Source: a virus
IMG/VR virus record: IMGVR_UViG_3300046804_003780
Length of the DNA stretch: 64,000 bases
Direction: 5' to 3' (one strand)
Below the pieces are notes generated by a model that was not told the DNA's origin, ran no database searches, and saw nothing but the letters and a program-made list of their open reading frames with translations. Positions 1-50,300 of the stretch are shown one piece after another. The position numbers and the translations under genes were made by a program. Numbering within the stretch: the first letter of the stretch is position 1; the number at the start of each line of letters is the position of its first letter.

Positions 1-187
1 ATGCAGGGCTTGCACCACTTGTTGTACGAATAACAGGCTGGCCCTGTGTATTATATTCCATCGCCTTAGCGAGATTTAATAAATTCGTTTCCTGTGGATG
101 AATGTAATTTGTAGAATTTAATCTTTTGTCTAGAACACCGTCATGGTGAGCCGGGGTGTATAGTTGACCTGTATCTTCTCCTGCCAT
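1..187 (-). CDS. Hypothetical protein, runs off the window edge (MAGEDTGQLYTPAHHDG...)
   Basis: ATG at 187 preceded by AAGGA RBS; frame stays open to position 1; not in the ORF track. Confidence 0.7.
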   Translation of the reverse strand, partial: MAGEDTGQLYTPAHHDGVLDKRLNSTNYIHPQETNLLNLAKAMEYNTQGQPVIRTTSGASPA

Positions 188-197
188 TTTTTATCCT

Positions 198-635
198 TTA
201 TGGCCCTGGTGGTGTGTCTACCCATGGTCGGCCTTCAATAAGTCCGTCTGGATTGGGATTATCAACTACTGTATTTCCGCTATAATATGTAGGTAATTCA
301 GAAATGTCATAGTATGGTCTAGTATTACCCAATTCTAATCTTTCTAAATTTGATAAATCTAATTTGGCGACTTGCCTATCTTCAAGTGTCGTAAGCCTAG
401 CTATCTTATTTGCTGTTCTCAAAACAGACCCTTCTGTTATAGAATAAAATGCTAACGTTTTTGTTACATCTAATTCTGTGCTGTTAAACACAAGGCTGAA
501 CCAGTTAACATTGCAACTTGTTGCAGTTTCTATTGTTGTTTTGAACGTACCTACCGTAGTTAAATCCGCAACAGTATATGGATCAAATTGTGCTGCGTTG
601 AGTAAACTTTGTACAGTTATATTGATTGTCGCCAT
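198..635 (-). CDS. Ubiquitin-like (beta-grasp) domain protein with a C-terminal extension
   Basis: Residues ~4-73 align to ubiquitin, gap-free from V17 to L67; core residues I3,V5,L8,V17,T22,K27,I30,L43,F45,L50,T55,L56,Y59,I61,S65,L67 identical; no di-Gly after the fold. Confidence 0.7.
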   Translation of the reverse strand: MATINITVQSLLNAAQFDPYTVADLTTVGTFKTTIETATSCNVNWFSLVFNSTELDVTKTLAFYSITEGSVLRTANKIARLTTLEDRQVAKLDLSNLERLELGNTRPYYDISELPTYYSGNTVVDNPNPDGLIEGRPWVDTPPGP

Positions 636-637
636 TA

Positions 638-925
638 TTATTCCTTAAACTGTAGTCCAGGATATAACGGAAATGTGGCTGTTTTTAAATCTGCTGGATG
701 CTTTGGTCCGTTCACTCCGCCGGCGATATCTTTAATAAGATAATCTACAGACGTAACCACTGTATCAGGACTGTTTGCTAAGTTATTTTGGCAGTTAGGG
801 CAATCACAACCATCTCCGCACCCACAGTCATCAGATTCATTTTCAAAATCTAATTGACCATCTTCTTTACCGTCTAGATTATCAATTAAATCTAACAGGT
901 CTCTAATAAATTCAGTAGCTCTCAT
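638..925 (-). CDS. Small acidic Cys-rich protein with MRAxEFI leader (possible internal head protein)
   Basis: ORF; CGCGDGCDCPNC cluster; TAAATA 5 nt before ATG. Confidence 0.7.
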   Translation of the reverse strand: MRATEFIRDLLDLIDNLDGKEDGQLDFENESDDCGCGDGCDCPNCQNNLANSPDTVVTSVDYLIKDIAGGVNGPKHPADLKTATFPLYPGLQFKE

Positions 926-2301: not shown

Positions 2302-2679
2302 TTATTTTCCGAATCCTTTAAAAGATTGGATAGGACTACTTTTATAAATATCCGGTAATTCTTGACTTCTGAGATCGCCTTTTGTTACATCATGCAACTT
2401 AGAACCTATTGCTTTTGCAGCCTGCTTCATCATATCCTGTTCTAGCTTTGTATATGGTTGAGCAGAATTATCTTTACCAATCCAACTTTCAGAATTAATA
2501 TTTATTGGAATGCCTGTGCCATCTGCACATGCTACTGCCATCATCATTCTATTTAATTCATAAGTTCTATCATAGCCCTCAGGGTCACGAAATACATCAA
2601 TCCCGACACTTGCATAGCCTTGTCTTTTCGTAATTTTACCTCGTTTTTTAGATTCAAAAATAAATTCTTTAGCTCTCAT
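2302..2679 (-). CDS. Hypothetical protein with MRAKEFIFE leader (possible internal head protein)
   Basis: ORF coupled to upstream gene by TAATG overlap. Confidence 0.7.
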   Translation of the reverse strand: MRAKEFIFESKKRGKITKRQGYASVGIDVFRDPEGYDRTYELNRMMMAVACADGTGIPININSESWIGKDNSAQPYTKLEQDMMKQAAKAIGSKLHDVTKGDLRSQELPDIYKSSPIQSFKGFGK

Positions 2680-3452
2680 TATATATCAATCTTAAAAGAA
2701 ATATTATGAGTAATTGTAGAACTTACAAAAGGAGTTACAATAACTCTTACATTACTAGCAGATACATCCATATCATATGTAGTTACTGCATTACCTGTTA
2801 TTAAGGTATTAAAAGCAGTAAAAGATACATTAGACCCATCATTGCTCAAAGAAGCTACTAACGTCACTGTTTGGCTATTATTACTATTTGCTTCTCTGCT
2901 AGTAACGTCAAATTTACCAGCACTAAATTGGCTTGTAGGGACTGCATAAATTGCTATAGGCGACGTTGTATTTGTAATAAATGTATGGGTATCTATAGTT
3001 GTATTGGGACTTGCACCATAATTAATACCACCTACAACAATATCTGCTTTAAGTGAAGGAAATACTGCGACATTAAAATTCATTATATTTGCATCTTCAG
3101 TAATATTAATATTACCTATGTTCAATGCGTTAGGACTGAGATACAAATTTCCAACTTGTCTTACTGGATCTCCAATTGTCATAGCATCATCTACAAGTGG
3201 CATAATATTAGCCCCTATGTAGAAATTACCTTCATCAGGATTAAAATTAAGATTTGTACTTGAGGAAAATGAATTTGTGATTATGTTCCCATTTACAGAA
3301 ACCAATTTAAACTGCACTGCACCGTTGGATCCTGAGGGCGTAAGATTACTAGCCTCTGCAAAATTATTGTTAATTTTAATGTATGCAACACGTAGGGGGT
3401 CGCCTGAACCGTCGTTGGGAAGAGAACCTACATTAATTACTTCATATGCCAT
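2679..3452 (-). CDS. Baseplate/tail-fibre connector-like structural protein (T4 gp9/gp10-type N-terminus)
   Basis: N-terminal INVGSLPNDGSGDPLRVAYIKINNNF motif; beta-rich body. Confidence 0.7.
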   Translation of the reverse strand: MAYEVINVGSLPNDGSGDPLRVAYIKINNNFAEASNLTPSGSNGAVQFKLVSVNGNIITNSFSSSTNLNFNPDEGNFYIGANIMPLVDDAMTIGDPVRQVGNLYLSPNALNIGNINITEDANIMNFNVAVFPSLKADIVVGGINYGASPNTTIDTHTFITNTTSPIAIYAVPTSQFSAGKFDVTSREANSNNSQTVTLVASLSNDGSNVSFTAFNTLITGNAVTTYDMDVSASNVRVIVTPFVSSTITHNISFKIDI

Positions 3453-18475: not shown

Positions 18476-18514
18476 TTGCAAAATATAAATTTTCTTAAAA
18501 AGGAGACACACACT

Positions 18515-19540
18515 ATGAAAAAACTATTTGCAGTTTTATCTTTTGCAGTAGCAGGTATAGCAACAGCAGCAGAATTTACTGGCGCTGGAGCTACATTCCC
18601 ATTTCCAATCTACGCTAAATGGGCGGAAGCCTATAAAGCACAAACTGGAATCGGCTTAAACTATCAAAGTATCGGTAGTGGCGGCGGCATTCGTCAAATC
18701 AAAGCAAAGACAGTTGACTTTGGTGCAAGCGACATGCCATTAAAGAAAGAAGAATTAGATAAAGAAGGTCTTGTTCAATTTCCAGCAATTATTGGCGGTG
18801 TAGTACCAGTTGTTAATTTAGATGGCATACAACCTGGTCAATTAAAGTTGACACCAGAAATAATTGCAAATATACATTTAGGTAAAATTACTAAATGGAA
18901 TGATAAAGCTATTGCCGAAATTAATTCAGGTGTAAATTTACCTGCATTAAATATCACAGTTATTCATCGTGCAGATGGTTCAGGCACTACATTCATTTGG
19001 ACAAACTTTCTAAGCAAAGCTAATGCAGACTTTCAAAAGATAGTAGGCGAAGGTACTGCTGTTAAATGGCCAGTTGGTGTAGGTGGTAAAGGTAATGAAG
19101 GTGTTGCAGCACAAGTACAACGCATTAAGGGTAGTTTTGGTTATGTAGAATATGCATTTGCTAAAAGAAATAAAATTGCACATACACAATTAAAGAATCG
19201 TGACGGTAATTTTGTACAACCAGATGATAGTACATTTAAGGCAGCAACAGCAAATGCAGATTGGGTTAATGCTCCAGGAATGTATTTGTTACTAACATGG
19301 CAAAATGGAAAAGATACTTGGCCAGCAACAGGTGCTAGTTTCATCTTAATGCATAAGCAACAAGCAGATGCATTAACAGGTCGTGCAGTTCTCAAATTCT
19401 TTGATTGGAGTTACAAGAACGGCAGTCAAATGGCATCTGAATTAGAATATGTACATATGCCACAAGATGTAATTAAGCTTGTTCAGGAAAATTGGAAGAA
19501 AGACTTCCGTGGTCCCGATGGTAACGCAATTTGGAAATAA
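18515..19540 (+). CDS. pstS: Periplasmic phosphate-binding protein PstS
   Basis: Signal peptide; GAGATFP, YQSIGSGGG, DFGASD, HRADGSGTT, GKGNEGV, GYVEY; AAGGAG RBS. Confidence 0.97.
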   Translation: MKKLFAVLSFAVAGIATAAEFTGAGATFPFPIYAKWAEAYKAQTGIGLNYQSIGSGGGIRQIKAKTVDFGASDMPLKKEELDKEGLVQFPAIIGGVVPVVNLDGIQPGQLKLTPEIIANIHLGKITKWNDKAIAEINSGVNLPALNITVIHRADGSGTTFIWTNFLSKANADFQKIVGEGTAVKWPVGVGGKGNEGVAAQVQRIKGSFGYVEYAFAKRNKIAHTQLKNRDGNFVQPDDSTFKAATANADWVNAPGMYLLLTWQNGKDTWPATGASFILMHKQQADALTGRAVLKFFDWSYKNGSQMASELEYVHMPQDVIKLVQENWKKDFRGPDGNAIWK

Positions 19541-25000: not shown

Positions 25001-25022
25001 TAAAAGTGGCCCTAAGGCCACT
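25001..25022 (-). terminator. Terminator ending the tmRNA coding piece
   Basis: AGTGGCC-TTAG-GGCCACT followed by TTT on the minus strand. Confidence 0.75.
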
Positions 25023-25023
25023 A

Positions 25024-25342
25024 AACTATTTTTGGTTACAAGGCATAGTTGCCCCGAAGATCATGCTGCTAGAGCAAAAACCTCATCGTTAGCTGCGTTT
25101 GCAGTTATAGTTTTGCTTGATTGACAGTCATCGCCTACTGTGTTGTCCATATCCTTACTAATTGCCCTGTCGAAACCAAATTCAGGCCCATCATAAGAGG
25201 ATTATAGCAAATGCAATCACTATGGCTGCTAAACTATAAACAATTGTTTCGCCTACTTGATACATTCTAATCTCCTTATGGTGGACCTGCCCGGGGTCGA
25301 ACCGGGGTCCAGAACACCTTTCATTCAACTTCATACAACAAT
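25024..25342 (-). ncRNA. ssrA: Circularly permuted (two-piece) tmRNA: acceptor piece ~25342-25279, intervening segment 25278-25190, coding piece 25189-~25024; tag ANAANDEVFALAA at 25102-25061
   Basis: T-arm CCCGG-TTCGACC-CCGGG and CAGGTCC-A-CCA lie upstream of GGGCCTG (7-bp acceptor stem with G3:U70); GGTTTCGAC D-loop analogue; pk1; ATAACT-GCA resume context; tag ends in LAA-stop; downstream pseudoknot. Confidence 0.95.
25191..25265 (-). CDS. 24-aa hydrophobic peptide MYQVGETIVYSLAAIVIAFAIILL inside the tmRNA intervening segment
   Basis: TAAGGAGA RBS 5 nt before ATG; RBS plus ORF fill the segment from CCA to G1. Confidence 0.55.
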   Translation of the reverse strand: MYQVGETIVYSLAAIVIAFAIILL

Positions 25343-25470
25343 TCTTTAAGCTGTTGACAATATACTTGACATTGCCCACACCTATGATCCAGCTCAAAAA
25401 TACGCTGAATTAATTCCTCTTTTGTCTTAAAATCTGATTCTTTAATATTTCTACAAACACAAATAATCAT
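25321..25470 (-). CDS. 49-aa Bfd-like [2Fe-2S] ferredoxin (MIICVCRNIK...CGQC)
   Basis: Read by hand; N-terminal CxC and later CxxC as in bacterioferritin-associated ferredoxin; 3' end overlaps the tmRNA. Confidence 0.6.
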   Translation of the reverse strand: MIICVCRNIKESDFKTKEELIQRIFELDHRCGQCQVYCQQLKELLYEVE

Positions 25471-27850: not shown

Positions 27851-29266
27851 TTACTTTATATTTTTCCAGTCATTATATAATTCAATAAATTCGGGAAATA
27901 TTTGTAAAAAATTAGTTCCGCGTCTTTTATCATGCTCATCTACAAACTTTATAAAGTCCTGTCTATTGATGCTTAAATTAGGATTTGGATTGTCAAGCTC
28001 GTGATTTACGATTGTTAAGACTCTTTTTAATTTATCAATTTCATGGTCATAGAATCCCATATAGGCCTGAGAAGGAATTCGTAAACCTATCTCTTTGTGG
28101 TCTTCCATAAACTTTACCTGTTCTTCAATAAAATGTACATAATTTTTTGGTATTATAAATGCTGGTTGATGAGCAGGGAATCTTAAATAGGGTATATCAA
28201 TAGAAAGTACCATTTTACGATTAGCAACTGATATTTCTCTATACTTTTGTCTTATATCTAACACATCTTGTAAAAATGTTTTGAATGATGGTACACTTAA
28301 AATATTGTAGGTGCTAGTTACTGATAAAACTACATTGGGTACTTCAGTAATAAGCCTTTCAATATTTTTAATCCAATCATTGTAATTTAAACCAAAGCGT
28401 GTATATTCTGCTTGTTTACCATGTGCCTCTGCACTTGTAAAAATACGCAGTTTCGATACACATTTATTTTCATCTATTATCTTTAATTTTTCAATAAGTT
28501 TATCAAACAATTCTTTTGGAGGATTTAAATTAGAGTTAATACTGAAACATAATTTAGGATTAGGATTTTCAATGATATAATCTAAAACTTTAAATGTATC
28601 TTTACTTAATATAGGTTCTCCGCCTGTTATTCTAAACTCTAAAAGTTCTTTATACATCTTAGGCCACCAGTCCCAAAACGCATCCATGTATGGATTATGC
28701 TGATTGTTTGGTATTGGTATTTGATTCTTTGTTTTAATCCATTCTAAACTGTTAAAATTTGAAGTAGTTGGATAAGGACCATGTCTTTCAATTTCTTCCA
28801 TCCATTGACTACTTATGTGAGGCATACAATAACTACACTTAAAATTACATACACTACTAAAACTCACCTCAACATAACTTGGATTAACATCATCGTCCCA
28901 AGGTTTGTCACTAATATCTTTAATAAAAGGATAACCCCACATAGGATCTGCGCTTTTATAAATTCTGTCACTATATTGGTTTCCTGCATCCTCTGCTCTC
29001 CAACAATAATCACATTCAGTTGGTCTTATTCCAACTAACATTTGTTTTCTTAATTCTTTTTTGAATTTAGTATTGTGTAGGGCTGAAGGATTTACTGCAA
29101 TTTCTTCTAATGGAACTAGGTGAGTTCCTGGGTGATGACAACTATGAGTGTGTCCATTATGTAAATGCATCGTAACTTGTTTCCACTTAGCAACACAAAA
29201 ACTAGGACTCACTGCGTTAATTTCCTCAGCAGCCTTTGCTAAATGTTTTTGATAATTATCATTCAT
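27851..29266 (-). CDS. Radical SAM protein with N-terminal twitch/SPASM-like domain
   Basis: CNFKCSYC (CxxxCxxC), TGGEP; N-terminal CVAKW...SCHH...CDYCW. Confidence 0.9.
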   Translation of the reverse strand: MNDNYQKHLAKAAEEINAVSPSFCVAKWKQVTMHLHNGHTHSCHHPGTHLVPLEEIAVNPSALHNTKFKKELRKQMLVGIRPTECDYCWRAEDAGNQYSDRIYKSADPMWGYPFIKDISDKPWDDDVNPSYVEVSFSSVCNFKCSYCMPHISSQWMEEIERHGPYPTTSNFNSLEWIKTKNQIPIPNNQHNPYMDAFWDWWPKMYKELLEFRITGGEPILSKDTFKVLDYIIENPNPKLCFSINSNLNPPKELFDKLIEKLKIIDENKCVSKLRIFTSAEAHGKQAEYTRFGLNYNDWIKNIERLITEVPNVVLSVTSTYNILSVPSFKTFLQDVLDIRQKYREISVANRKMVLSIDIPYLRFPAHQPAFIIPKNYVHFIEEQVKFMEDHKEIGLRIPSQAYMGFYDHEIDKLKRVLTIVNHELDNPNPNLSINRQDFIKFVDEHDKRRGTNFLQIFPEFIELYNDWKNIK

Positions 29267-35391: not shown

Positions 35392-38300
35392 TTAGTCACT
35401 TTTTAAGAAATTTGCTGGTATAGTGTTGCTAATTTGCAGTGGATCACCATTAGCAGAATAATCATCACTATTCCAAATTTTGTTATAATAAAACGGATCT
35501 AGAATATCTTTTGTTGAAAAACTCAAAACATATGAATATTTGTCCTGTGTTGGGAGAATCGCAGTTCCTTCTGCTCCCCTGACAAAATTAGTTATAGTGT
35601 TATCTTCAATATTAATATTTTTAAATCTAATTTTTTCGCCGTTTATTATTATTGTATTACCAAATCGCAATACAAATTCTAAAGCATCTCCGTCTGTTAC
35701 ACCTGAGGTGAAAATTACCTGAGTTGTAGAATTTACTGTATTAAGATAATATGAGGTTTTAGCTAACTCAAGTCCTGTTACTAAATTATTTACAGTTAAC
35801 AAAACTATATCTACTATGTTGTAGTTTAAGTAGGAGTAAATCTTTTGCGTTGTTATGTCATAAGATGCATAAGAAACCGTTGATGTTATATCGACCAATT
35901 TAGTTACATCATCAACGTAGATTTTAGTATCAGTAGGATAAATTGGTCTAACTAACCAAGTGCGATTTTCAATATTGCTGTTAGCAATCACCATTTCGTT
36001 ATTTTTGTTTACTGTTAAAGTATACCAAAGTTCATTTGGAGTAGGAGAGGGCATATAACTAGTAACAATAATTGTATTGCCAAGTGCAATAGGAGACATT
36101 ATACTTAATCTATTATTTGGCTGATTTATACGCAAATTATTAGGTGTAACTCTAGTACCATTTATATGTACAAACAATCTATTTGTATCTATAATATCAA
36201 GTGTAGGTTGATTAATTGAAATTGTGTTTGTATATTTCCAAATAAAGCCGCCAGAACCTACTCCGTTAGAATAGAATGTTCCGTAAGTGTTACCTATTAC
36301 AGGTACTGAAAGATTAAAATCACTATAAAGCTCATATCTATAATATGTAACTGCATTCTCAACATATGTTGGCAAAACTCTTACATAAAAAATATTATTA
36401 TTAATTTCAGTAATATTTTGAACTCCATCTATTAATACTTGATCTTGATTTACGAAAAAAGCATTTGTAGCTGTTGTAACTACAACAGGTGTAGCAGGAG
36501 TATTTATATAATAAATTGGAGTTACTCTTATAGATGTTGACGTTTGCGTTACGAAAAATTGATTTTGAGTATCGTTAAATGAAGTTACACTAACTATTGT
36601 ATTAGCAGCAATTGATGGTATAACAGTTAATGTAGTTCCAACAATTGTGTAGTCAATAGTATTTCTTGCACGTATTCCATCAATTTCAACTACCGCATTG
36701 TTAGGATTGTTTCCTCCCATATTGTTAGTTAATGTAAAAGTTTTTGGTCCACTTACGTACTGAAAAACTTGAGTTTCAGGCATACAATATTGATATATTG
36801 TGTTTGCAGGGCCGTAAATTGCAAAACTAACATACTGAGTAGCTAAATTAATAATAGATGTAAAAACAATGGTAATTGCATTTGATTTATTTGGTTCTAT
36901 TTTATAATCAACATTGTTTATTTTTTTAACCCCATTAATATACACTACTGGAAATAAATATACTCCATCTTTATATGGATAATTTGTGTCTATGTAACTT
37001 ACATTTTTCTTTGCATCAAACTTAACAGGAACATTATCAGATGTACCTTTAACTTCTTGATTTCCGCCTCCTAAACTATAGACTTCAAAATAAATTTTTT
37101 CTGTAGGACTTAATGGTGAAGTTAATGTTACAACCTTAAAAACCCAATCTATTGATTGTATTTTAACTAAACTTGTAGGGGTAGGCACTTGATTAACAGT
37201 GTAAATGCGTGTTGCTCTATTATTAGTATTCGAAATTATATAAACTGCAATTTGTGTTGCGTATGGTGATAAATTAGCAAAACTAAATGCAGTAGAGTTA
37301 CCTAAATCAAATATTCCGCTATTTACATAAAATCCAAAATTTTCGTATACAGTAGGATCCCAAAGTGATCCAGGTGTAGTCTTTACTGTAAGCTGAAGAT
37401 TATCTGTTATCAATGCTGGTACCATTTCTTCTGGTCCATATCCTGATAAGAATGTTTCTCCTTTTATGTTATATTCAGGTTCATTAGCAGTTAGGAAAGA
37501 AATATTTTCCCAATCTATTACATTGCTACTACGTAAAATTGTTGAGTTTTCACCTACTGCAATTAAATAATTGCCATCAAATTCAATTTCATTTAAATTA
37601 TTTGAACTTATTTGTGAGGTTTGACTCCATGTTTCTCCGTCTGAGCTATAAAGTATGTAACCATTATTACAAATTACTATATAGGTGTTTAGAGCATAAA
37701 TGCCGTGATTTATTTGTTGATTAAACGATGGTCCTAATATGGTAGCTACATTCCAGTTGCTTGCGTTGGTTGACCAGTAAATTTTACCAAAATCACCTGC
37801 AGCTATAATTTTTGTATTTGAACCAAATACTGTGTTAAAATTTACATCAAATGTTTGATTAGTATTGGTCCAAGTTATGCCATCGTAACTTATTACGACT
37901 CTAGCTTGGTCAGCAAATACTGGTGAAGGAGTGTCTGGACCTTCTATAATAGATGTTCCATTTCCAACTGCGATAAATCCTTCGAAACTGGTTGCGTCAG
38001 CTCCTGGTATATATGCAACTGATTTTAAAACGTTTGGTAATCTACTGCCAAAACTATACCCTGTTCCCCAGCTTGTTGCATTAATACTACTCAAAACATT
38101 ATTACCAACAGCTACGTAATTATTATTGTAGTACACAACATCGTATAGTTCATCATTAGGAGTTTCTACAGATAGGGTATCAAACCCTGCAACATCAAAC
38201 GGAGCATCATCATAAACTGTGTATGAACCTACACTTACCCAGTTAAATCCATCATAGCTTATGAGCAGAGGAGCACTAGCATTCAATGCACTAATTACGT

Positions 38301-41300
38301 AAAAAGAACCTGAGTAAATTATTCTAGTCACATTAATAGGTGTATCACTTATTTTTTTAAATGTCCAGTTTCTACCATCAATACTATATAAAACAGTTGC
38401 ATTCGTAGCTGCATTACCAATTGCTACATATTTGGCCCCGTCATATACTATACTTTTTATATCAATTTCTTTTGGATAAAACGGCTGTCCTTGTAAAATT
38501 ACATCTAATTCAAAATCATCATTAAATTTATTACCTAAATTAGTACCATTAGGATATTCTAATCCTGTCATTAATAATGGTAAATGTTTACCAGGCATAT
38601 TGATAGTTGGTTGGTAATAAGCAATAATTCTGTCTAACGCATTTATAAATGGGTAATCACTTTGTAATAACTCCCATTTAGTAAAATCAAAAGTTGCGTC
38701 ACTATTTGCCACAATGCACTTATACAATTTATTATTATAAGTGACCAATGATGCTGCAGGAATAGTGAATGGTTCAGGATAAAAACCAATATCTCCTGCG
38801 GTAAATATGAATGGAGTAGCCCCTGTATTTTTTACAGGATTAATTAACGTTGCATCGTAAAATAATCGGCATTTTGTTGCACTTATTGGTATCGTATAAT
38901 ATTCATCAAATGCATTGGAACATATACCACTTAAACTATAAAAAACTATGGCTCCGGATAAAGCAAAAGTAACAGTAATTATTAAATCATTTGCCGGTGA
39001 AGAGCCTCCCAAAAGTGCTCCTGATATTGTTATAACGTCTCCGGTAGTGTAAATATTTCCAAAATCTTTTATGTCAATATCATACTCATTTGACACAGTT
39101 GTGCCATAGATTCTTGGGCTAGTAACCCAAATAATGGCACCACCAGAACCTGAATTATCATAGATATATGGAGTTGTAAGTCTGGCTACTTTATAGAAAT
39201 AAAGTTTGGTCTTATTAAGATATCCAGCTGCTAGACTAGTATTTGTGTAATTAAATGTTACAATGACATTATTTGTACCAGATTCTGTTGTTACTGCTGA
39301 TATTGGAACAGTGGCCCCTTGTAGGCTTGACAAGAATACAGGTTTAGCAACACCTTCAACAATAAATTGTGTTATTGATCCGGCTAAGGTTACGCTTACA
39401 ACAGTTATTGTACAACTATTTGTAGGAGCAGTTCCTCCCAATAAATTACCTGGTATCGTAATTACATTTCCTGCTTGATAATTTAATCCTCCACTATTTA
39501 AAATTGCTGTGTACACACCAACGTTATTGGCAGTTGAATAAAAATCAGGTGGCTCGTCTTGGTTACCATAAATCCAAGCATATACATCAAATAAAGCTCC
39601 TGATCCTCCCGCAGGACTTACGTTTCCTGAAACAGATGGGAAAGGTATTGCAGTAGCAAGCTTACTTGCATAGCTTGCATCATTTCCTATGCTATTATAA
39701 GTTGAGATGTAAAATTGATTTGGCTCCCAAACAGTAACCTCAGGTCTATAACTAGTTCTGTCAAATTTTAATACAGGAGTAATTTGTCTTGTAGGAGCAT
39801 TACTTGATATTGGAGCCAATCTAGCACCTAATGTTAACACATGATTATTACTTGGAGTTCTTCCTTGGACTAAAATTAATCTATGTGTATCAGTTAAAGC
39901 ATTAATTTTTGAAATGTAAAATGCAATAGCAGTAGGTCTATTTTGATTTGCAATAGTAACTGCAGGTTTTTTAGTTCCATATTCAATTAATCTTATATAA
40001 TAATATTGATTATCTATTAATCCCAAAATAGTTGATAAATTGCTACCTTTACTGTATTTTAATAAATCTCCTGTTTCAAACAATTTAAATGGAACGTTTA
40101 TAGTATAATTTGTATAGTTTATATCAGAGGTATTAAATTTATGTTCAATTGACGGTTCAATAATTAACTCAGGTAATACCTTATATCCTTCACCTGAATT
40201 TAAAACAGTAACAGCAACAACTTCTCCTGCTGACATTTGGGCCTTAAGGGACGCTTGTACTTTAGGAGCAGGAAAAACTTCTGTATTTACGTAACTTACA
40301 ATATTTGGTGGTTCTGTGTATCCTCTACCACCATATATAACACTTACGGCAGGCAAATCTATAAAGATTTTTGTTCCTGGAAAATGATCTACAACTTCAG
40401 TATCTAATGCACCTCTTGTTAATCCAGATAATATTCCCAAATCTCTGTCAACTGTGTTATAACCTATATATTCATTATCAATTTTAATCACGCCTACTGT
40501 TGGATATCCAAATGCATTATCAACAACAATTATTTTTGTTGCGACTGGGACATATTCACGCAGTAAACCAATAAAATAATTTTCTTTTCCTTGCAGTTTT
40601 ACTCCGTAGTTATTAAACCATTGATTATACTGTGGTTCTTGCCATATTTTATCAGAAGAATTATATTGAGATTCTAGCAACGTGTCACTAAAAACTAGTT
40701 CAGGAGTAATAAAAGAATCAAGTGTTGCATTCCATTGAGCAGGTAAATCAAAATCAGAAATATCTCCGTCATATAGATTTGTCTTTGTATATTTTAAACT
40801 AAATTCTTTAAGTTTTACTCTATATGGTTTAACCTCATTGATATATCCATAAAGAAAATCTTCATTGTCACGTTGGAAATTTTTAGTTTGCTCTAATTCT
40901 CTTAAAGTGTGTTCTACATCTAAAAATGAGGTTTTGTTTAACCAAGGTAAATAGTTACCAAATTCTTCTGTTTCGGTTATAATATATTGAAATAGTAAAA
41001 TTAGTCCTTGATTTCTATAAATTAATAGGTCATCAGTGAAAACTTCTTCATTTAATCCACGTATGATATTGTAGGTTTCTACTGACGGGAAACTGTCATA
41101 AGGTGTGCTATCGTAAAAACTGTCCCCAAATCCTATTCCGTTAATGCTATAATCATAGAGAGATTTTTTGATTGCAATTGTCCCTAGCTCTAGTCCGATT
41201 CGGTTCCAATTATTATTTTGATATAAATAAACTTCACGCTTACCGTTACTGTTAGCATTTACTCCAACTATCATATTCTCAAAAGCATTTAACTTTTCTA

Positions 41301-44300
41301 AATCGTAATATTTTGGAACGTCAATATCAGTTCTTGTTGAATCTGAATAACCTTCTGCCCACCAGTTTACATATTCCCAATAATTGTTTGTGTCAAAATC
41401 ATCTCCGGAAAGTGTGAAAAACGCAGGAGCATTTAACCCTGTTGTAGCCACTCCTCCCAATGTAAGGAAGCTAGGATTTTTCAACTCAGTTATAGGAAAC
41501 TTAATCATTACATTATTTGCAAACTGCACATAATTTTCCAAAGCCCGTAATCTGTTATAGAAAAAACTTTGGCTTGGTCGCAAATTAGTGCCAGTTTGTA
41601 ATAATCTAGGTAAAAATGGGTTAGGAACAGATTGTCCTAACAAATCAACTCCTGAAAAACTATCTAATAATTTTTGATATAAACCATTAGGAGTGACTAG
41701 GTTATTATACAATGTGGGGAGTCCAGGTAGAAAATCTTCTGCATACCCATCACGTATCAATTTAAATTCTGTGTGAGCAACATCATTCCCACTATCTGTT
41801 TTATATCCTAAATGCAAACTTGTAAAAGTAGCACTAATATATTCAAACACATTATACAAAGCATACACATTTTGTTTTAATGGTGCTAAAAAAGCTATAC
41901 CAGAAGTAATAGGATTAGAAATGTAGGATGAAACTATATTATCCGCAAGTGTTTTTGCATTTGATAAAACGGTCCCAATATTTTTAACCCAATAATAATA
42001 TCTTGTTACTATAGTACCACTTTCAACAATTTCGTTTAATGTTGTGTAGGCATCAATATCGTAAACAGTACCAACACCAGTATAATCTATAGGTAAAACG
42101 TCACTTTCTATCCACGTGTAGACTGATACTGTGCTGCCTGGAAACACTGTTCCCCAGTATCTACTATTATATAAAATGTTATTTTGATGATAATCAATAA
42201 ATTTGGTTTCAGATGTGTCGAACCATAATTTTCCAACGTATTCTTGTCCCCAAACAGATTTCCTTACATTGTTATTATTATATCCTGCAGGGTCTACGCT
42301 TGATATGTAATCTAAGTTTTGTGCGACAACACCTAATAATTTTCCTTGTAAAGGATCAATATAATCTAAACTTACAATGTTTAAATTATTTAAATTGTTA
42401 TATATTGAAACTCCATGTAGTTTGTTTATGTCTACAGTATTGGTGGGGTTTCTATAAATATACCAATTAGGTTTTCCAGAAGTATTTCTAAAAATATTAA
42501 CTCTACCATTTTGACTACCACTTAGATATGTGGGAGATCCAATTATAATGTTGTAATTATTAAACGAAATATTAGTTCCATAATACGGGGCACTGCCTAA
42601 AGTTGTGGTTGTATCGTTGACTAATTGACCAAGAACAAATTTTCCAATATTGTCTATACTTTCGTTGTACGCACCTAAATAGTCATATACATATGCTGAT
42701 CCTGCATCTGCAACAACATCAGTAAACACTGTAAAGTTATTATCAAAAATAGTGTCATTGCTATAATCTTCGTCATCAGTAAAATCAAATGTCGTTTGAG
42801 TATATCTATTACTTGTAGGAGCAGACACAACAAAGGAATTTAATTCATTAAATTTTATTGATGTTCCGTATTGAGTATTATTTTGTATGTTAGGATCGTG
42901 TAAAGTTTGTGTTTTTTTATAGAAAGTTATACCTAAACTTGCAAAATTTGCTTCTGCGAATACTGTTAAATTAAGTTTATCTTCCAAAACATTTAAACTT
43001 TGATTGATTAATTGTATTACAAGTTTATTATCATTTGTTTTTGATGCTATTACATTTGGAATATTTGCCTCGTTTATTGCAATAACCGCATTATTAATTC
43101 CAGTTGCAGGTAAAGTCACCGCAAATCCATTAATTAAAATGTTAATTTGACTTGATAAATTGTAAACACTAGAACCAGTGATTATGCCAAACTTTTTACC
43201 TGCATTAGTATATCTATAGACTGTACCTTCTGTTCCTGTTGCATCTACGATATCAAATGGAGAACCTACTAATAATTCATTACCTAAGTTATTATTACTT
43301 AATCCCTTACCATAAAGTATACCTACTCTTGGATTGGTAACTTCGCTGTGTCCTATGAGTGTTTGACTTAAAATAAAATCATTACCTTCAACCAATATTA
43401 AATCACCTGCTTTCAACACAATTTGTTCTTTAATTGTTAAAATATTTGTTGATAGTGTATAATTAGAACTTGATAAAATATTACCATTTAAAAATACACT
43501 TATAGAATTTGTAGGTGTCCATGCTAAGGCAAAACTAGTAGCAATTGTTTGAATGGGGGTAAATCTTGACTCAAATATTTGTTTAACTCTATTGTAAATG
43601 TATACAACTCCTGTATCCGTAACAGCATTAAAGTCTTGATTAGGCGCACTTATGAAAAGTTGTGTTCCATTGTAATTTGTAGAAATGTTTGATCCAAAAT
43701 TTGTTGCTGACCCTGCGCCGGTAATTGTTGCAACATTTGTATAGTCATAATAGGCTCTGTAAACTGTAGTGCCTATATTAGCTCCTGCAAAGAAATAACC
43801 TTCTATGGTAAAGGTTGTTAAATTACTACCTGCGTCAAATTCTCCTGTGATGATTTTGTAGGTTGTTGATCCATTTACATTAGAGAAACTAACCATTTGT
43901 CCTTCTAATAATAATGATCTTCTATCTCCTGAAACTCTAAATTGATTACCGTTAACAGATATAGCAGAGGTTAATGGATATCCAATACTTGTAAAAGTTA
44001 AATTTGAATTTTTTCTATACACAAATACTTGTCTTGTAGAACCTCTACCTACAAAAAAGTAATTACAATCGTCACTCATCACTACTTTATCTGCAGCGCC
44101 ACTTCCGCTTATATTAAATGAATTTTGTAGGGCAACAGCTTCAATTTTTTCAGTCGAAACTAGTTCATAAATGTAAACTATGCTGGTTGTTGCAGATTTT
44201 AATATGGCTAAAAAGTTTTGTTTTTTATCCATACTTGAACCAAACCCAGTTGGGCTTGATGGTATTGTAATTGTTTCGTCTAAATTCCAAAAGTTAATGT

Positions 44301-47300
44301 TTGATTCATATTTGTATCTATAAACATTTCCAGTGCCTGAATCTCCTAAGAAATAACCTAATTTAGCATCAAAAGCAACACTACTTCCAAAAGATGAAGT
44401 TGGCACTGGCTTGTTAAAACTTGATGATAATTGATAGTTGATACCTTTTCTATAAACTGCCCATGTGCCATTAATGTTTTCATCCACCCATACTGTGCTT
44501 AGGACAAATTCAGTATCAATGAGATTTAAATTACTAATATCTTTTGGTGATGAAACTCTTTGATTTTGTAGTTTTGCAACTATTCCAGTTGACTCAATGT
44601 TTGATATAGATAATGGCAAACTTAAATCTATAACAACTGAGTTTGCATCACTAATTCTTACTATAATATAGAAACCATCTACAAAGCTTGAATAATTCAA
44701 AATCATTATCACAGTATTGACTGCTAAATTATGCGGTTTATCAAAAAATACTGTGCAAGTATCATTTAAATTATTAACTACATTTATTATAGCAACTGGA
44801 ATGTTTGCGTTAAGAGATGTTGTGGCGTAAATTCTCCAATCACCTTTGAAATCTGCTATCCAAATATATTCGTTTTTATAAATGTCGTAAATTGAAACTT
44901 CATTTTGATTTAAATTTGCAACTTTAAATGAATATGTTTTAATATCTTCAAAATTCACATATCCAGCCGATGGTAATTGATTAAATGTACCAGAAGGTAA
45001 AAGTGGAAGTATATTGATATTATTTGGAACACGTCCGTAATTACTTAAAGCATAAATTGGTATTTCTTGCATTGAACCTGGTTCATTAACATCTTTTATG
45101 ATACTAACAATAGCAGGATTTCCATTTAATTTTTGTTGATCCAGTTTAAATTCAATAAAATTTTGATCTAATACACCACCATAATTTCCTATATTGATTG
45201 CCCAATTTTCATAAGTTGTATAATTTATACCACCAGTTTGTAACGTAATGTTTTGAATTGCAGAAGTAGCTTGTTTACTTCCTTTTTCGACAATCATTGT
45301 CTTATAAAGATTTACTTGTGATATGTCATCCAAATTTGCAGCAGCTAAATAATCTCTTGGTCTATATCCAATTAAAGAAAAAGATAATAAATCAGCGTCA
45401 TTTTCTAAGTTTGCTTGGTACGAATTATAATATAAAGTACTCTCATATGCCCTGCTACTTGCATTAGGTAATAATCCTTTTTGTATTAAATCATAGTCTA
45501 CTTTTGTCCAAAGATTTTGTTGAAAGGAGGCTGCTGGCTGAATAATTTCATTTGAAGCATAATAATTATTTTTATATTTTACTATTACGCCTTTTGTATA
45601 TTTGGTATTTGCCTGCCAATCTATAACATTATCCTGATTTAAAATAAATCCTTTTGTATCTACCGTGCCGTCCCAAGTTGCAGTTTTTGCTCCTTTTAAC
45701 AACATACGATATTGTCTTAAGCCAGTATTTGGATCATAAATTAAATCATTAAACAATGTTACATTGTCAAAAACAATTGCGTGTTCGATATTACTTAAAT
45801 TAGCATTAAAGTATGCAATAGTATCATCAACCTTTATAGGAATCGCAGAAAATTCAACTCCATTTCTAATAATTGACATATCCTTAATTTGTATTGGAAT
45901 TAAATTTTGATTTAATACATAATTTTGAGCTTGTAGTGTTAGAGGTTGAACAATAGCATTTTCTTTATTAATTACAATTTTTTTAGCCAAAGGATTTATA
46001 TTTAATATTGAACCTGTTTCCCAACCTGCTTGAATCCAAGCTAAAACCTCTTGAATCATTTGATTCCAATTAAGAATGAGGTTATTTTCAACCTGATTAA
46101 ATTCGAGGCCTTGTGAACTTAAGTAATTACCATAAGAATTAATAAATTCAGCAAGTGCCTGAGGTGTAGAAAACTCGGTGCTATATGGAACTATAACAAC
46201 TTTACCGCTTGAATTTTTTGAAATTCTAACTGACAATGAGCCAGATGTTATGGTTTCATACTTTCCATTTACCAATGGAGCAAATGTTTTAAAATAAATT
46301 TTATTTTGACTATTACCATATACTTGATAACCAGTATCAGTTTTTTGAATTATAATTGAACTATAAACAATCGTGTCAAAAGGTTGATTTTCATGTAGTA
46401 GGACTTGATAACTTTCGTCTGGAATTAATAAACTATTATTTCTGCTCGTTGGGGAACCTTTATCAACATAAAATTTTAACAACTCTTTGTCGCTAAATCC
46501 TGCCAATCGATAAACCAATCTTACATCTAAATTGTTAAGATATTCTGTTAAAATATCATATCCTGAATTTCCTGTACTCTGAACATAGTCCACTATCCAA
46601 TTAATGTAACTATGCTGTGCTGTTCCGCTCCCGTATAATACAGATCCTGTAGTTTGAAATCTAAACTTGTTATTGACTAGATACTGATCAAATTCATCAT
46701 TAAATTTATAGGTGTCTAAATTTTCTCCCAACGCATAAAATTTTGCAGGTTTACATAACGCTAAAATTTTTACCAAGTCGTAAGGCCAAGAACTGCTCTT
46801 TAAATAACTAAATTCAGCAGGACCCCAATCACCAACTTTCCATTGTGTTTGGAACGTCAAGTTGTCATAGTTACCTATAACAGAATTTAATGGATCAACT
46901 AAATTCCCCAAATCGTCCACTGGTAAAACTTTTAAGAGTCCTGGTCTTTTTCTTGATTCAATTATAATTGGATTTCCGTCATTATAATCATAACCATTTT
47001 CCATATCAGTCCATAATACTAAGTTATTTTTAGTATACGGCGGTAATCCATAATAACTATCCCACCATTTAGGCTTATTGGTGTACCCAATCATTTCCCA
47101 AGGAGTTAAGTTTGGAGTTACTGTGTCAAAAAACCAGTTATATAATCCTTTCCAATTGCCCCTTTTTACTAAAGTATTATCTAATCTATTTGTTGCTTGG
47201 TAATAGTTATATGTGTATGCATCTGTTGCACTGTAATATTGTGATTTATAATCAATTCTATTTTGACCTACCCAATTTAAAAAGGACATTGAGTACAATT

Positions 47301-50300
47301 GTAAAATTTCATCATAGTTATAGTCAGTATTTCTAAATTGTCCAGGTAGAACCTCATCACTTGAAATTGGAATTTTAGAACTTACTTTTAAATTGTTATA
47401 AATTCGGCACTCAAATTCAAATATTACTTGGTCACGATAATCTGTTAGATATCCATTTTTATATTCACCGTATAATGTTGTTAACGAACCATCGTGACCT
47501 TTTATAAACCAAGTAGGATTTACATAAGAAGTATCATAAACAACTTCAGGTATTGTTGCTGGATAAAATCCTAATTTTGTAGGAGTATTTGGTACATAAC
47601 TACCATATGTTTGATTGTATTCATTAACAACAATTACGTCTCCAATTACCAAATCAGTATACACGTTGACTAAGGGTTGATCCGAACTAACTATATAATC
47701 TACGTCCCTAATTAATTGTCGCTGAACTAACACTCCATTTACATTTCTTAAAAGATAAAGTAATACAGAGTTATAATTTGCTGAAGTAAAATCATATATT
47801 TTGCTTAAAGAAAATTGCGATTGATTTACATCGGCATTGAAAGAATACCTATTGGTTATATATGCTCCTTTACTAGGTAACATATCTGACCAAAAGAATG
47901 AATTGCTTTGTGTTTTGTATGAAGTTATTTCATTGATAGCGTTATCTAATATAGTTGACGCTATTTGATAGCTTTCATATGGTGTTTTAGATACCACATC
48001 TATGAGTAGACTTTTATATTTAATATATTCAACTGAATTAAAGTTAAGAGAATCAATTAAATTAAAGTTTGCATTTTTTAAGAATGCCCCAGTTAATGAT
48101 AAAGGAGCACTATTTTGAATTATTTTTGTTCCATATCTTACTAGGTTTGGTAAATCTCTGTAATTATTTGCACCAAATATTTGACCAACAATACGTTTAC
48201 TGTTTGTACAAATACTCAAATAATGATTTTTTATGTCTCCTAAATTAGGACTCACTATTTGCGCATTAAAGATATTGTTTTCTAAGTTTGTTGGTATCGT
48301 AAAATACCCCGTAGTGCTTACCTTATCACTATAAATTAATATTTGTATAGGCGTTTCTAATATTGGAGTAGAATTTAAAGTTATTGTCGTTGTATTTCCT
48401 TGCACTGCAAAAGTAAATTCAGTATCAAATAAAATATTATCTCTAACATAAACTTGCACTACCGGCCATGCAGTAGAATCTGTGGATTTAGCTGGTACAT
48501 CGCAAATAAAAATTGGACTGCCCTTTGCTGGGTCATAATTAAAATTAAATGCTTGATATTGAATACTATTTGAAATTGCAGTTTGCCAGCCTAGTTCTCT
48601 CACATAATCGGTTTTAGACTGATAATTATATATGTATCCTGTATTAACATCCTGTGTTGTTTGAATTCCATTTAACACATAATTAAATTTATCTGTGTTA
48701 TATGAAACATTAAATTGAATATCACCTATGTTGTTTACTGAACTATATTTTAAAGGAAATCCTAATATAGGATCATTGTTCCCAGTACCTGTCGCATATT
48801 GAAATAGTGAAGTTCCAATAAAACTACTACTGTTGTAATAATCTGTGTCCCCAAAGCTTAATCCATTTGAATCAAAAATATCAAACAGCGGTGGTTGATT
48901 TACTGTTGTTTTTAACTGCCCTTGTATCCAAGTTGATCCATTAAACCAATATGTATATCCTTTTCTATCTTCACCTAACAATACTACGGTTTGATCAAAA
49001 CTTTCAACATCTCCGTTAGCTATTTTTGTAAGTGTTATTACAGGTGGTGATTGAGTTATTACTACATTGCCGGTTGCATTATCTAATTGAATAAAATTAG
49101 ACAAATTTGGATCTGTGCTTAAGCGCAGTGATGTAGAATTTGGTATATCATATACATAGTATTTTGTAAATGCTGTCAAATTGCCTATGTTTTGATTTAA
49201 AGAAACTAAACTTCCTACAACAAAACTTGTAGAATCTGTTACAGTAAGTCTGTCTGTAGAGGCGCTAGTAGAACTTATTACTGTCGATGTCTGTGTAGCA
49301 ACCGACGTGGAAATATAATTTACTCTATAAATTTTGTTTCTAACATTTACATCTGTGTCTGCACTGAATATAACCTTACAACCATCAAACAATCCAAAAC
49401 TTAAGCCGTCTGGATAATACTGTAATTGACTGGCTACTTGTGTAAATGCGTCGGTCGCAGTTATATCAAAATAATCAACCGGAGGTTTTGCTTGAATGCC
49501 TAAATTGAATAATTTTAAGTTAGGGTAAAATTCAATAATTGGTCTTTTAGCTCTAGCCTCATTACTATTAATAACATTAAGTAAATTTTTACTGTTAGTA
49601 TGTTTAATAGTTTCTTGTATGACCTGTGAGTGGAACCATCTATTACCTCTAGTCCACGCATTTAAATTTTGGGCTGCTCTGTTAATAGTGATATAATCTT
49701 GTGTTATAGGTGATTCAACTATATCAGAATATGGTGCAATATCATATGGTGCAGCATCATATGGATTGTAAACACTTTGTGAATACGATTCTGGTGTTAC
49801 TAACGTAGAGGCTGAAATTAATTTAATACCTGTTCCAACTCCTTCTACATAATATTGATCCGTTTTATATTTCTCAGGTACAACGTCACCAGAAAAACTT
49901 ATTTTTAATCCATTAGTAAATTTAACGTTGTTTGGTGAGATGTAAGTTAGTTTGTTTAAAATATCAGTTTCAACATTTATATAATTGGCTTCATTACTAT
50001 CTACTATTTTAATAACGCCAATCTTTTTAAGATTTTCACTGTCCTGATAATACAATGTATCTAAGGGTGCAGTGACTTCAGGTATTATTTGTATTTCTCC
50101 TGTTTGTAATCTTACAAATTTTTTAAAAATATATTGATTTCCAATTAATACCGTAATATTTGTATTTGTTGGTATTACATTTAATGGGGTTAAATTAATT
50201 ATTGGATCACCTGGCTCATCTGTTTCTTCATAGGTTATTTTGAAGAAATACTGACTTACATTTACAAAAGAAGCTGAATCGAACCCTACAGGGTTAGTGC

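Follow-up and report, generated by a model that had tools for sequence, protein, structure and literature searches.

A ubiquitin-family domain built into a morphogenesis-region protein of a jumbo phage and joined to a new small module

We found that a short gene in a 64,000-nucleotide stretch of viral DNA (IMG/VR record IMGVR_UViG_3300046804_003780; "the window" denotes this whole stretch) encodes a ubiquitin-like domain (Ubl) that is an integral, non-conjugatable part of its polypeptide and is joined to a new small module, here termed the anchor, in a jumbo phage. A preliminary description, made from the letters of the window without database searches, had proposed a eukaryote-style ubiquitin fold in a late-region phage protein. 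Our analysis places the domain in the ubiquitin family proper, uncovers a large family of related viral proteins and leads us to favor, tentatively and with somewhat less than even confidence, a reading in which the anchor is a docking module that places an integral, non-conjugated (type-2) Ubl on a virion component. The features of the gene, with the basis for each, are as follows:

198..635, minus strand: the whole gene, 145 codons plus stop with an ATG start, specifying the Ubl and then the anchor module (list of open reading frames (ORFs), translation)
417..635, minus strand: residues 1-73, integral ubiquitin-family beta-grasp without a C-terminal Gly-Gly (PF00240, family profile against the PDB, AlphaFold2 with Foldseek and VIA)
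597..614, minus strand: residues 8-13, VQSLLN, the end of strand beta1 and the beta1-beta2 loop (weighted column conservation, HMMER alignment to ubiquitin)
201..416, minus strand: residues 74-145, the anchor module (occurrence without the Ubl, conservation, model)
222..233, minus strand: residues 135-138, GRPW, invariant C-terminal motif of the anchor (family alignments)

Residues 1-73 are a true ubiquitin-family beta-grasp, a point on which Pfam, AlphaFold2 and Foldseek agree with the preliminary description. The Pfam matches of the protein are to ubiquitin and Rad60-SLD only; the PF00240 match spans residues 19-72 and reaches 27.8 bits (E 2.1e-6), above the curated cut-off of 25.4, and about three-quarters of the listed homologues carry a precomputed match to the same family. 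A phmmer search of the PDB with the single sequence gave no match, and a profile of 101 family members (alignment A1) was needed; the best solved relative of this profile is ubiquitin (single chains at E ~1e-9, 41 bits), whose residues 1-68 align with profile positions 4-73 through one two-residue insertion in the beta1-beta2 loop. AlphaFold2, run on the family alignment, returned a model with a mean predicted local distance difference test (pLDDT) of 95.4 and a predicted template-modeling score (pTM) of 0.85, in which residues 3-76 adopt a beta-beta-alpha-beta-beta arrangement; since the model holds both domains, its pTM suggests that they are packed into a single unit. Foldseek comparison with the PDB retrieved ubiquitin, NEDD8 and ISG15 (target template-modeling (TM) score ~0.9, root-mean-square deviation (rmsd) 1.1-1.4 Å over ~75 residues), and VIA aligned the model to ubiquitin with a Z of 14.8 and an rmsd of 1.1 Å over 74 residues.

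The preliminary description had placed 16 identities within ubiquitin V17-L67, where we count 13; the figure of 16 holds for all 68 aligned residues (~23%), with I3, V5 and L8 added. The alignment, given there as gap-free, stands once corrected for the two-residue insertion, and the ten residues singled out in it (K27, I30, L43, F45, L50, T55-L56, Y59, I61, S65 and L67) are all identical. The term "eukaryote-style" is fair for the family (PF00240), although the identity to ubiquitin is only ~23%. The most conserved patch of the Ubl is VQSLLN (residues 8-13), which includes the lengthened beta1-beta2 loop, two residues longer than that of ubiquitin; here V8, Q9, S10, L12 and N13 constitute a nearly invariant surface loop with no ubiquitin equivalent. 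The equivalents of the ubiquitin I44 patch are mostly poorly conserved (V49 0.36, R73 0.49 and A75 0.30; L11, corresponding to ubiquitin L8, 0.81), and those of K48 and K63 are not conserved in the family.

The Ubl is an integral domain and, as the preliminary description had surmised, a non-conjugatable one. Where ubiquitin has LRLRGG, the chain runs on (..VLRTANKIARL..) into the second domain with no Gly, so the earlier remark that a Gly-Gly is lacking is borne out. The junction residues 73-75 are variable among the 101 relatives (frequencies 0.49, 0.42 and 0.30), which leaves no conserved processing site; neither a Gly nor an L/I-x-E motif occurs at the Ubl-anchor junction, which AlphaFold2 models as a continuous strand with a pLDDT >95. 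ThiF-type E1 and Prok-JAB domains were not found in a CheckV-complete relative of 359,563 bp, IMGVR_UViG_3300042549_004104, and two large partial contigs, nor were JAB/MPN domains in the same complete relative and four large partial contigs; the complete relative and the other large contigs each contain exactly one PF00240 domain. No similarity to the PADLOC defense models was recovered at E up to 1, and in place of a Bil/Bub-type operon the neighbors are structural, packaging and small uncharacterized genes. A conjugatable, type-1 Ubl is recognized by a free or exposable Gly right behind its last strand and by a cognate E1, E2 and deconjugating peptidase encoded alongside; the present one has no such Gly, and no E1 or JAB peptidase was found in the relatives searched. 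What we see is the configuration of an integral, type-2 Ubl: it is embedded in a longer chain, shows no processing site and is kept together with the anchor in 174 of the 269 retrieved proteins.

The second domain is a new small alpha+beta module that forms the constant core of the locus. Described earlier as a tail of ~70 residues ending in GLIEGRPW, it is 72 residues long; GLIEGRPW lies at 131-138 and is not the end, being followed by VDTPPGP. Its core (residues 74-140) opens with a short segment (N76, I78, L81), after which come a long helix (RQxAKLxLA..R), a beta-hairpin (LPxxYxGN) and a terminal strand, and it includes the invariant GRPW motif; the consensus reads N-G-I-S-x-L-x-T-x-E-x-R-Q-x-A-K-L-x-L-A...R...Y-D-I-x-x-L-P-T-x-Y-x-G-N...G-L-x-x-G-R-P-W, with Q88, R99, R136, P137 and W138 invariant. 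By mean column entropy the anchor is better conserved than the Ubl (1.60 vs 1.94). It belongs to no Pfam or PHROG family, and the whole protein is likewise without a PHROG family. Modeled alone it attains a pLDDT of 88; this model had no Foldseek match in the PDB at E <= 0.001, a best Z of 2.6 with VIA (wide), TM <0.5 by shape against the ESM Atlas and nothing convincing there by features, although a missing match is no proof that the anchor is unrelated to solved attachment domains. The anchor is single-copy in five large contigs, the complete genome included.

Whether the tail also occurs without the Ubl had been set as a check, and it does so widely, as an independent module that is N-terminal in many Ubl-less proteins. 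We recovered 156 homologues of ~140 residues from a library clustered at 90% identity and, by exhaustive phmmer search, 290 clusters from one at 50% identity; the family spans 257 IMG/VR stretches. In about 80 of the 290 clusters, query residues 74-142 align to residues 2-70 of Ubl-less proteins. Among the 269 retrieved proteins we counted 139 of the form Ubl + anchor, 63 of anchor + C-terminal domain, 35 of Ubl + anchor + C-terminal domain and 14 of the anchor alone; the first and third forms account for the 174 that keep the Ubl. The C-terminal domains are GLEYA/PA14, Laminin_G_3 (LamG, concanavalin-like) and ILEI, all of glycan-binding type, and comparison with PHROGs shows their resemblance to segments of phage tail and virion proteins. 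Free-standing anchor genes start with M-(A/S)-x-N-G-I, the point at which the Ubl fusion reads R-T-A-N-K-I. In one metagenomic protein of 452 residues (P0133), a repeat-rich N-terminal region of 310 residues, possibly beta-helix-like, precedes Ubl + anchor; its anchor stands at the extreme C-terminus and is thus not confined to N-termini.

Every member of the family that we found comes from a viral contig or a metagenome, with no cultured phage among the carriers. Neither at the DNA level nor by tblastn did the gene have a match in the INPHARED phage collection, and an anchor + LamG query matched there through its LamG part only, with none to the anchor; a pattern-limited scan of GTDB representative genomes, which does not prove absence, found no relative. 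Entries labeled "uncultured Caudovirales phage" in BFVD (UniProt-derived) hold the family under the automatic names ILEI and GLEYA, and we found no description of it in the literature.

Both domains are maintained by strong purifying selection, as the low pairwise ratios of nonsynonymous to synonymous substitution rates (dN/dS) among close relatives indicate (Ubl 0.04-0.2, anchor 0.01-0.13). On an anchor tree built with the junction columns removed, which retains ~60 columns and is noisy, the presence of the Ubl requires 20 changes, against 48-69 with shuffled labels; inheritance of the Ubl has therefore been fairly stable, though broken by several losses or gains. For a C-terminal domain, presence requires 44 changes (on a first tree in which the junction columns were kept).

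Through the analysis of conserved gene neighborhoods in 85 loci, we uncovered a recurrent order consisting of a methyltransferase, small ORFs, the Ubl/anchor gene and then structural and packaging genes. The slot accommodates the Ubl-less forms as well: an anchor + GLEYA gene lies in it with the same flanking genes (L087), an anchor + 458-residue form occupies it with identical synteny on a 280-kb contig (L095), and a complete 68-residue anchor-only gene is found there too (L097). A gene of phrog_1645 lies directly downstream, with a gap of -19 to +30 nucleotides, in ~50 of the 82 loci with room for it, and the large terminase follows directly in 8 loci; neither was detected next in the remaining loci of the 82. 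In most inspected loci without an adjacent phrog_1645 or terminase gene, the next gene begins MGRPLKIAKAQAV, and on two large contigs of this kind phrog_1645 lies ~35 kb away. The genes starting with MGRPLKIAKAQAV (L052:10509-11750, L062:1142-2140, L074:10525-11811) constitute an unannotated family of 330-430 residues in one sub-clade, with a weak tail-fiber PHROG match only. A small-terminase reading of the anchor, suggested by its gene sometimes lying directly upstream of the large terminase, was set aside in view of the sister forms with lectin domains and of the virion structural gene that usually lies between the anchor gene and the terminase.

The immediate neighbors in the window are the following:

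2..187, minus strand: 62 opening codons of the downstream gene, which runs past the window edge and encodes a phrog_1645 "virion structural protein" (identical gene pair on contigs L001/L002)
638..925, minus strand: the 95-residue upstream neighbor, with an MRxxEF(I/L)-type leader (ORF list)

The stop codon of the upstream 95-codon ORF lies 2 nucleotides before the start codon of the Ubl gene, which places the two in the same transcription unit, and a counterpart of this ORF is also found upstream of the anchor gene in locus L087. On the other side, 10 nucleotides that include an AGGA ribosome-binding site separate the stop of the Ubl gene from the start of the next. A metagenome contig with the identical Ubl protein (L001) carries a 451-residue protein in this position, followed by the large terminase, and this protein matches phrog_1645 at E 3.8e-117.

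Proteins of phrog_1645 are homologous to cyanomyophage "virion structural proteins" of the g16-g17 island. Similarity to the cyanophage proteins sets in only at query residues 51-69. Among the anchor-bearing phages, by comparison, the N-terminal ~60 residues are conserved, even in proteins that differ in their middle part. As this N-terminal region is conserved in phages with the anchor and left uncovered by matches to cyanophages without it, we infer that the phrog_1645 product is a candidate docking partner of the anchor. A complex prediction for the Ubl-anchor protein with the 451-residue phrog_1645 protein scored 0.00, which counts neither for nor against binding. Across loci the phrog_1645 proteins range from 443 to 747 residues and share a layout of the conserved N-terminal ~60 residues (..HP.E.NLLNL.KAM.YN..G.P.IRT..), a variable insert and a conserved C-terminal region of ~390 residues; compared with P0270 (L001:5253-6608), the insert of P0271 (L003:10444-12666) holds four near-identical repeats of ~23 residues (ITGGNISVTGNIAGITSLPSIQA).

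The genomic setting is that of a T4-like myovirus, the window displaying gp6-type and gp5-type baseplate proteins and a gp55-type late sigma factor, together with spanins, a fiber-like gene, thymidylate synthase and a PstS-like gene. The late-region assignment of the preliminary description is upheld by the spanin, baseplate, fiber-like and late sigma factor genes, and by the structural protein and terminase downstream. The baseplate wedge protein is ~32% identical to its counterparts in 350-kb jumbo phages of the Rak2/GAP32 type. The IMG/VR contigs that carry relatives of the Ubl gene reach 359,563 bp, the longest being 100% complete by CheckV, and partial contigs of 100-220 kb are estimated to be 29-61% complete; from these values the genomes of the clade should measure ~350 kb. 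The sequencing runs with >30% of the sampled words are freshwater metagenomes, and no RNA run was among the public runs listed as carrying the sequence. A permuted (two-piece) transfer-messenger RNA (tmRNA) of betaproteobacterial type is present at window positions 25001-25391 on the minus strand (Rfam beta_tmRNA 122.7 bits, tmRNA_permuted 129 bits; ARAGORN tag ANAANDEVFALAA), and it hints that the host may be a betaproteobacterium.

Other elements of the window can be noted in passing. Matches to the T4 late-promoter motif TATAAATA show no enrichment, with 6 in the window against 15.5 expected. Within the structural block, a single ORF of 5284 codons (35392-51246, minus strand) is the immediate upstream neighbor of the baseplate wedge gene. 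Just upstream of the Ubl gene, three small ORFs with no other relationship to each other (638-925, 938-1273 and 2302-2679, minus strand) share leaders (MRATEFI.., MRIHEIL.. and MRAKEFI..) that resemble the capsid-targeting leaders of T4, and small ORFs with MK..(E/D)IL.. leaders stand beside the anchor gene in L083 and L088. A 257-residue protein (2679-3452, minus strand) has a fiber-type N-terminus typical of T4-like phages (..GSLPNDGSGDPLRVAYIKINNNF..) and matches phrog_677, "baseplate wedge tail fiber protein connector" (E 5e-5). Auxiliary genes include the PstS-like phosphate-binding protein (18476-19540, plus strand; phrog_5385, E 2e-61) and a radical-SAM protein (27851-29266, minus strand).

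We propose that the product of the gene has two domains and belongs to the late/structural module of an uncultured freshwater jumbo phage, T4-like and ~350 kb in size. Its anchor would dock non-covalently onto a virion component, for which the phrog_1645 product of the next gene is the best candidate. The Ubl would stay in the polypeptide, never being activated or conjugated, and would provide a protein-protein interaction or display surface comparable to that of the eukaryotic type-2 proteins Rad23, Dsk2 and parkin, with the lengthened, nearly invariant VQSLLN loop as its probable functional face. Because sister phages carry glycan-binding domains at the other end of the anchor, the locus appears to act as an accessory or adhesin particle protein with swappable payloads, and the nature of these payloads argues that its products end up on the particle surface. 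The virion-attached adaptor envisaged in the preliminary description fits this context (structural slot, glycan-binding sister forms and coupled virion gene), from which we infer virion association.

Several observations weigh against this proposal. With three of the four I44-patch positions poorly conserved, the VQSLLN loop is the only nameable partner-binding surface of the Ubl. Adjacency to phrog_1645 is not universal, given the 8 loci that pass straight to the terminase and the clade with another gene in that place. The Ubl is N-terminal to the anchor and the lectin payloads are C-terminal, so their "payload" roles may differ. The closest phage precedent by layout, lambda gpI, has been reported to be outside the mature tail (PMC1779556). 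No cultured phage carries the family, and the case for its presence in the virion is drawn from context.

Two alternatives come next in likelihood. In the main rival, which we nevertheless consider unlikely, the protein is a non-virion assembly factor that, like lambda TAPI, transiently helps to fold or mount the neighboring structural protein and is then left out. The tight translational coupling to the phrog_1645 gene would suit such a factor, as would the anchor-only genes of 68-70 residues, which imply that the module has a task to perform even when it carries no payload; TAPI, itself encoded beside a structural gene, likewise unites a ubiquitin-like domain with a small C-terminal one and is reported to be absent from the mature tail (PMC1779556). 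Yet Pfam finds no TAPI family in our protein, just ubiquitin and Rad60-SLD; no conserved Gly ends the beta-grasp, no Gly-rich linker follows it, and the complete and large relatives searched contain no JAB peptidase. Moreover, the lectin-like domains of the sister forms typify adhesins of the finished virion and would be odd on a discarded chaperone. The other alternative, more doubtful still, makes the Ubl a passive add-on, a folding or solubility aid or a spacer with no partner of its own, all function residing in the anchor. Ubiquitin fusions do help small partners to fold, as in the ribosomal protein fusions, sister phages do without the Ubl at the same locus, and the anchor is the better conserved domain by entropy (1.60 vs 1.94). 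A mere spacer is hard to reconcile, however, with the strong purifying selection on the Ubl (dN/dS 0.04-0.2), the near invariance of V8, Q9, S10, L12 and N13 and the retention of the domain in 174 of the 269 retrieved proteins.

Readings that tie the Ubl to host conjugation or to proteolysis fare worse. An improbable variant of the docking proposal holds that a Ubl built into the particle through the docking module is exposed and is a case of molecular mimicry at the phage-host interface, occupying or masking a site that host ubiquitin-like defense ligases would tag or engaging a host-surface or cytoplasmic partner that recognizes beta-grasp tags. The preliminary description had raised a decoy or inhibitor of E1, E2 or JAB enzymes. 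In such an anti-defense reading, the Ubl would mimic the tag of Bil/Bub or of Cap2 in the cyclic oligonucleotide-based antiphage signaling system (CBASS) and jam these enzymes, or shield the virion protein that they would tag. Since Bil conjugates its Ubl to a phage tail-tip protein (10.1101/2023.09.04.556158), a countermeasure among the structural genes is conceivable; all the same, we regard this reading as highly improbable. An E1 would have to act on a C-terminus that is here fused across a non-conserved junction, conservation is poor at the equivalents of I44, H68 and V70, the PADLOC models show no similarity, and the PDB profile matches are led by ubiquitin, NEDD8 and ISG15, with none of Bil type among the 60 matches listed; the Ubl is also dispensable, sister phages replacing or omitting it and adding lectin domains. 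Least probable of all is a cleavable ubiquitin-fusion precursor, from which a protease would free both Ubl and anchor, as in eukaryotic fusions or in the processing proposed for lambda TAPI. T4-like phages do encode a prohead protease, and the free-standing anchor genes begin where such a cleavage would fall; against this, positions 73-75 hold no conserved residue, the junction offers neither a Gly nor an L/I-x-E motif and is modeled as a continuous strand (pLDDT >95), and no JAB or deubiquitinase was found in the relatives searched.

Domains of the PF00240 type have been regarded as essentially eukaryotic, and recent work on ubiquitin-fold proteins of bacteria and phages has dealt with conjugation tags that have enzymes of their own. 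In contrast, a large viral family is shown here to hold a bona fide ubiquitin-family domain fixed in a morphogenesis-region protein, with no conjugation machinery found in the relatives searched, next to a 70-residue module that has a confident predicted structure, no detectable structural relative and swappable payloads (Ubl, GLEYA/PA14, LamG and ILEI). This provides a tractable system for the role of a non-conjugated ubiquitin fold outside eukaryotes and for the attachment of accessory adhesins in jumbo phages. The mimicry reading, if true, would give the first example of a bacteriophage that employs ubiquitin mimicry in a structural, non-enzymatic way.

Compared with ubiquitin itself, the phage domain has the same fold (rmsd 1.1 Å, Z 14.8), with the 16 identities in 68 positions concentrated in the core, but differs in its ~23% identity, in having no LRLRGG tail, in the lack of conservation of K48 and K63 and in its fused C-terminus. 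Baculovirus v-ubi and the ubiquitins of giant viruses are likewise virus-encoded PF00240 proteins and appear among the BFVD structural matches; v-ubi has been reported as virion-associated. Those viral ubiquitins are near copies of host proteins that retain the Gly-Gly and belong to eukaryotic viruses, whereas the present domain is divergent, fused and encoded by a bacteriophage whose host has no ubiquitin system. BilA of the Bil/Bub systems offers another ubiquitin fold at the phage-host interface, Bil targeting a phage tail protein (10.1101/2023.09.04.556158). Unlike the Bil/Bub Ubls, which have a free C-terminal Gly and reside in operons with E1, E2 and JAB, the present domain has no such terminus, and neither E1 nor JAB in the complete relative nor any PADLOC match was found.

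Among phage proteins, TAPI of lambda and T1 (Iyer, Burroughs and Aravind 2006, PMC1779556) combines an N-terminal ubiquitin-like beta-grasp with a C-terminal domain that is small and globular. Our protein resembles it in joining a Ubl to a small domain and in being a product of the phage morphogenesis region, with a structural or host-specificity gene alongside. The Ubl of TAPI, however, is of the ThiS/MoaD kind, ends in a conserved Gly that is joined by a Gly-rich linker to the TAPI-C domain, and is accompanied by TAPK, a JAB+NlpC/P60 peptidase (PMC1779556); the terminal Gly, the linker, a Pfam match to a TAPI family and the JAB partner were not found here, which sets our protein apart from TAPI. 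In pairing a constant small module with swappable glycan-binding domains at one locus, the family recalls modular phage adhesins and decorations such as tail fibers and Hoc-type proteins; it departs from known attachment domains in that its anchor, for which attachment is a proposed role, has no detectable sequence or fold similarity and is single-copy per genome. The nearest parallel to the Ubl as such is found in the eukaryotic type-2 proteins. In the phage protein the partner is a new 70-residue module, rather than a UBA, RING or similar domain, the I44-type patch is not conserved, the beta1-beta2 loop is two residues longer and nearly invariant, and the gene is that of a bacteriophage. Nevertheless, like Rad23, Dsk2/ubiquilin and parkin, it presents an N-terminal PF00240 beta-grasp without Gly-Gly inside a larger polypeptide, which in those proteins is a non-covalent interaction domain, and the Ubl structures of Dsk2 and ubiquilin are among its top structural matches.

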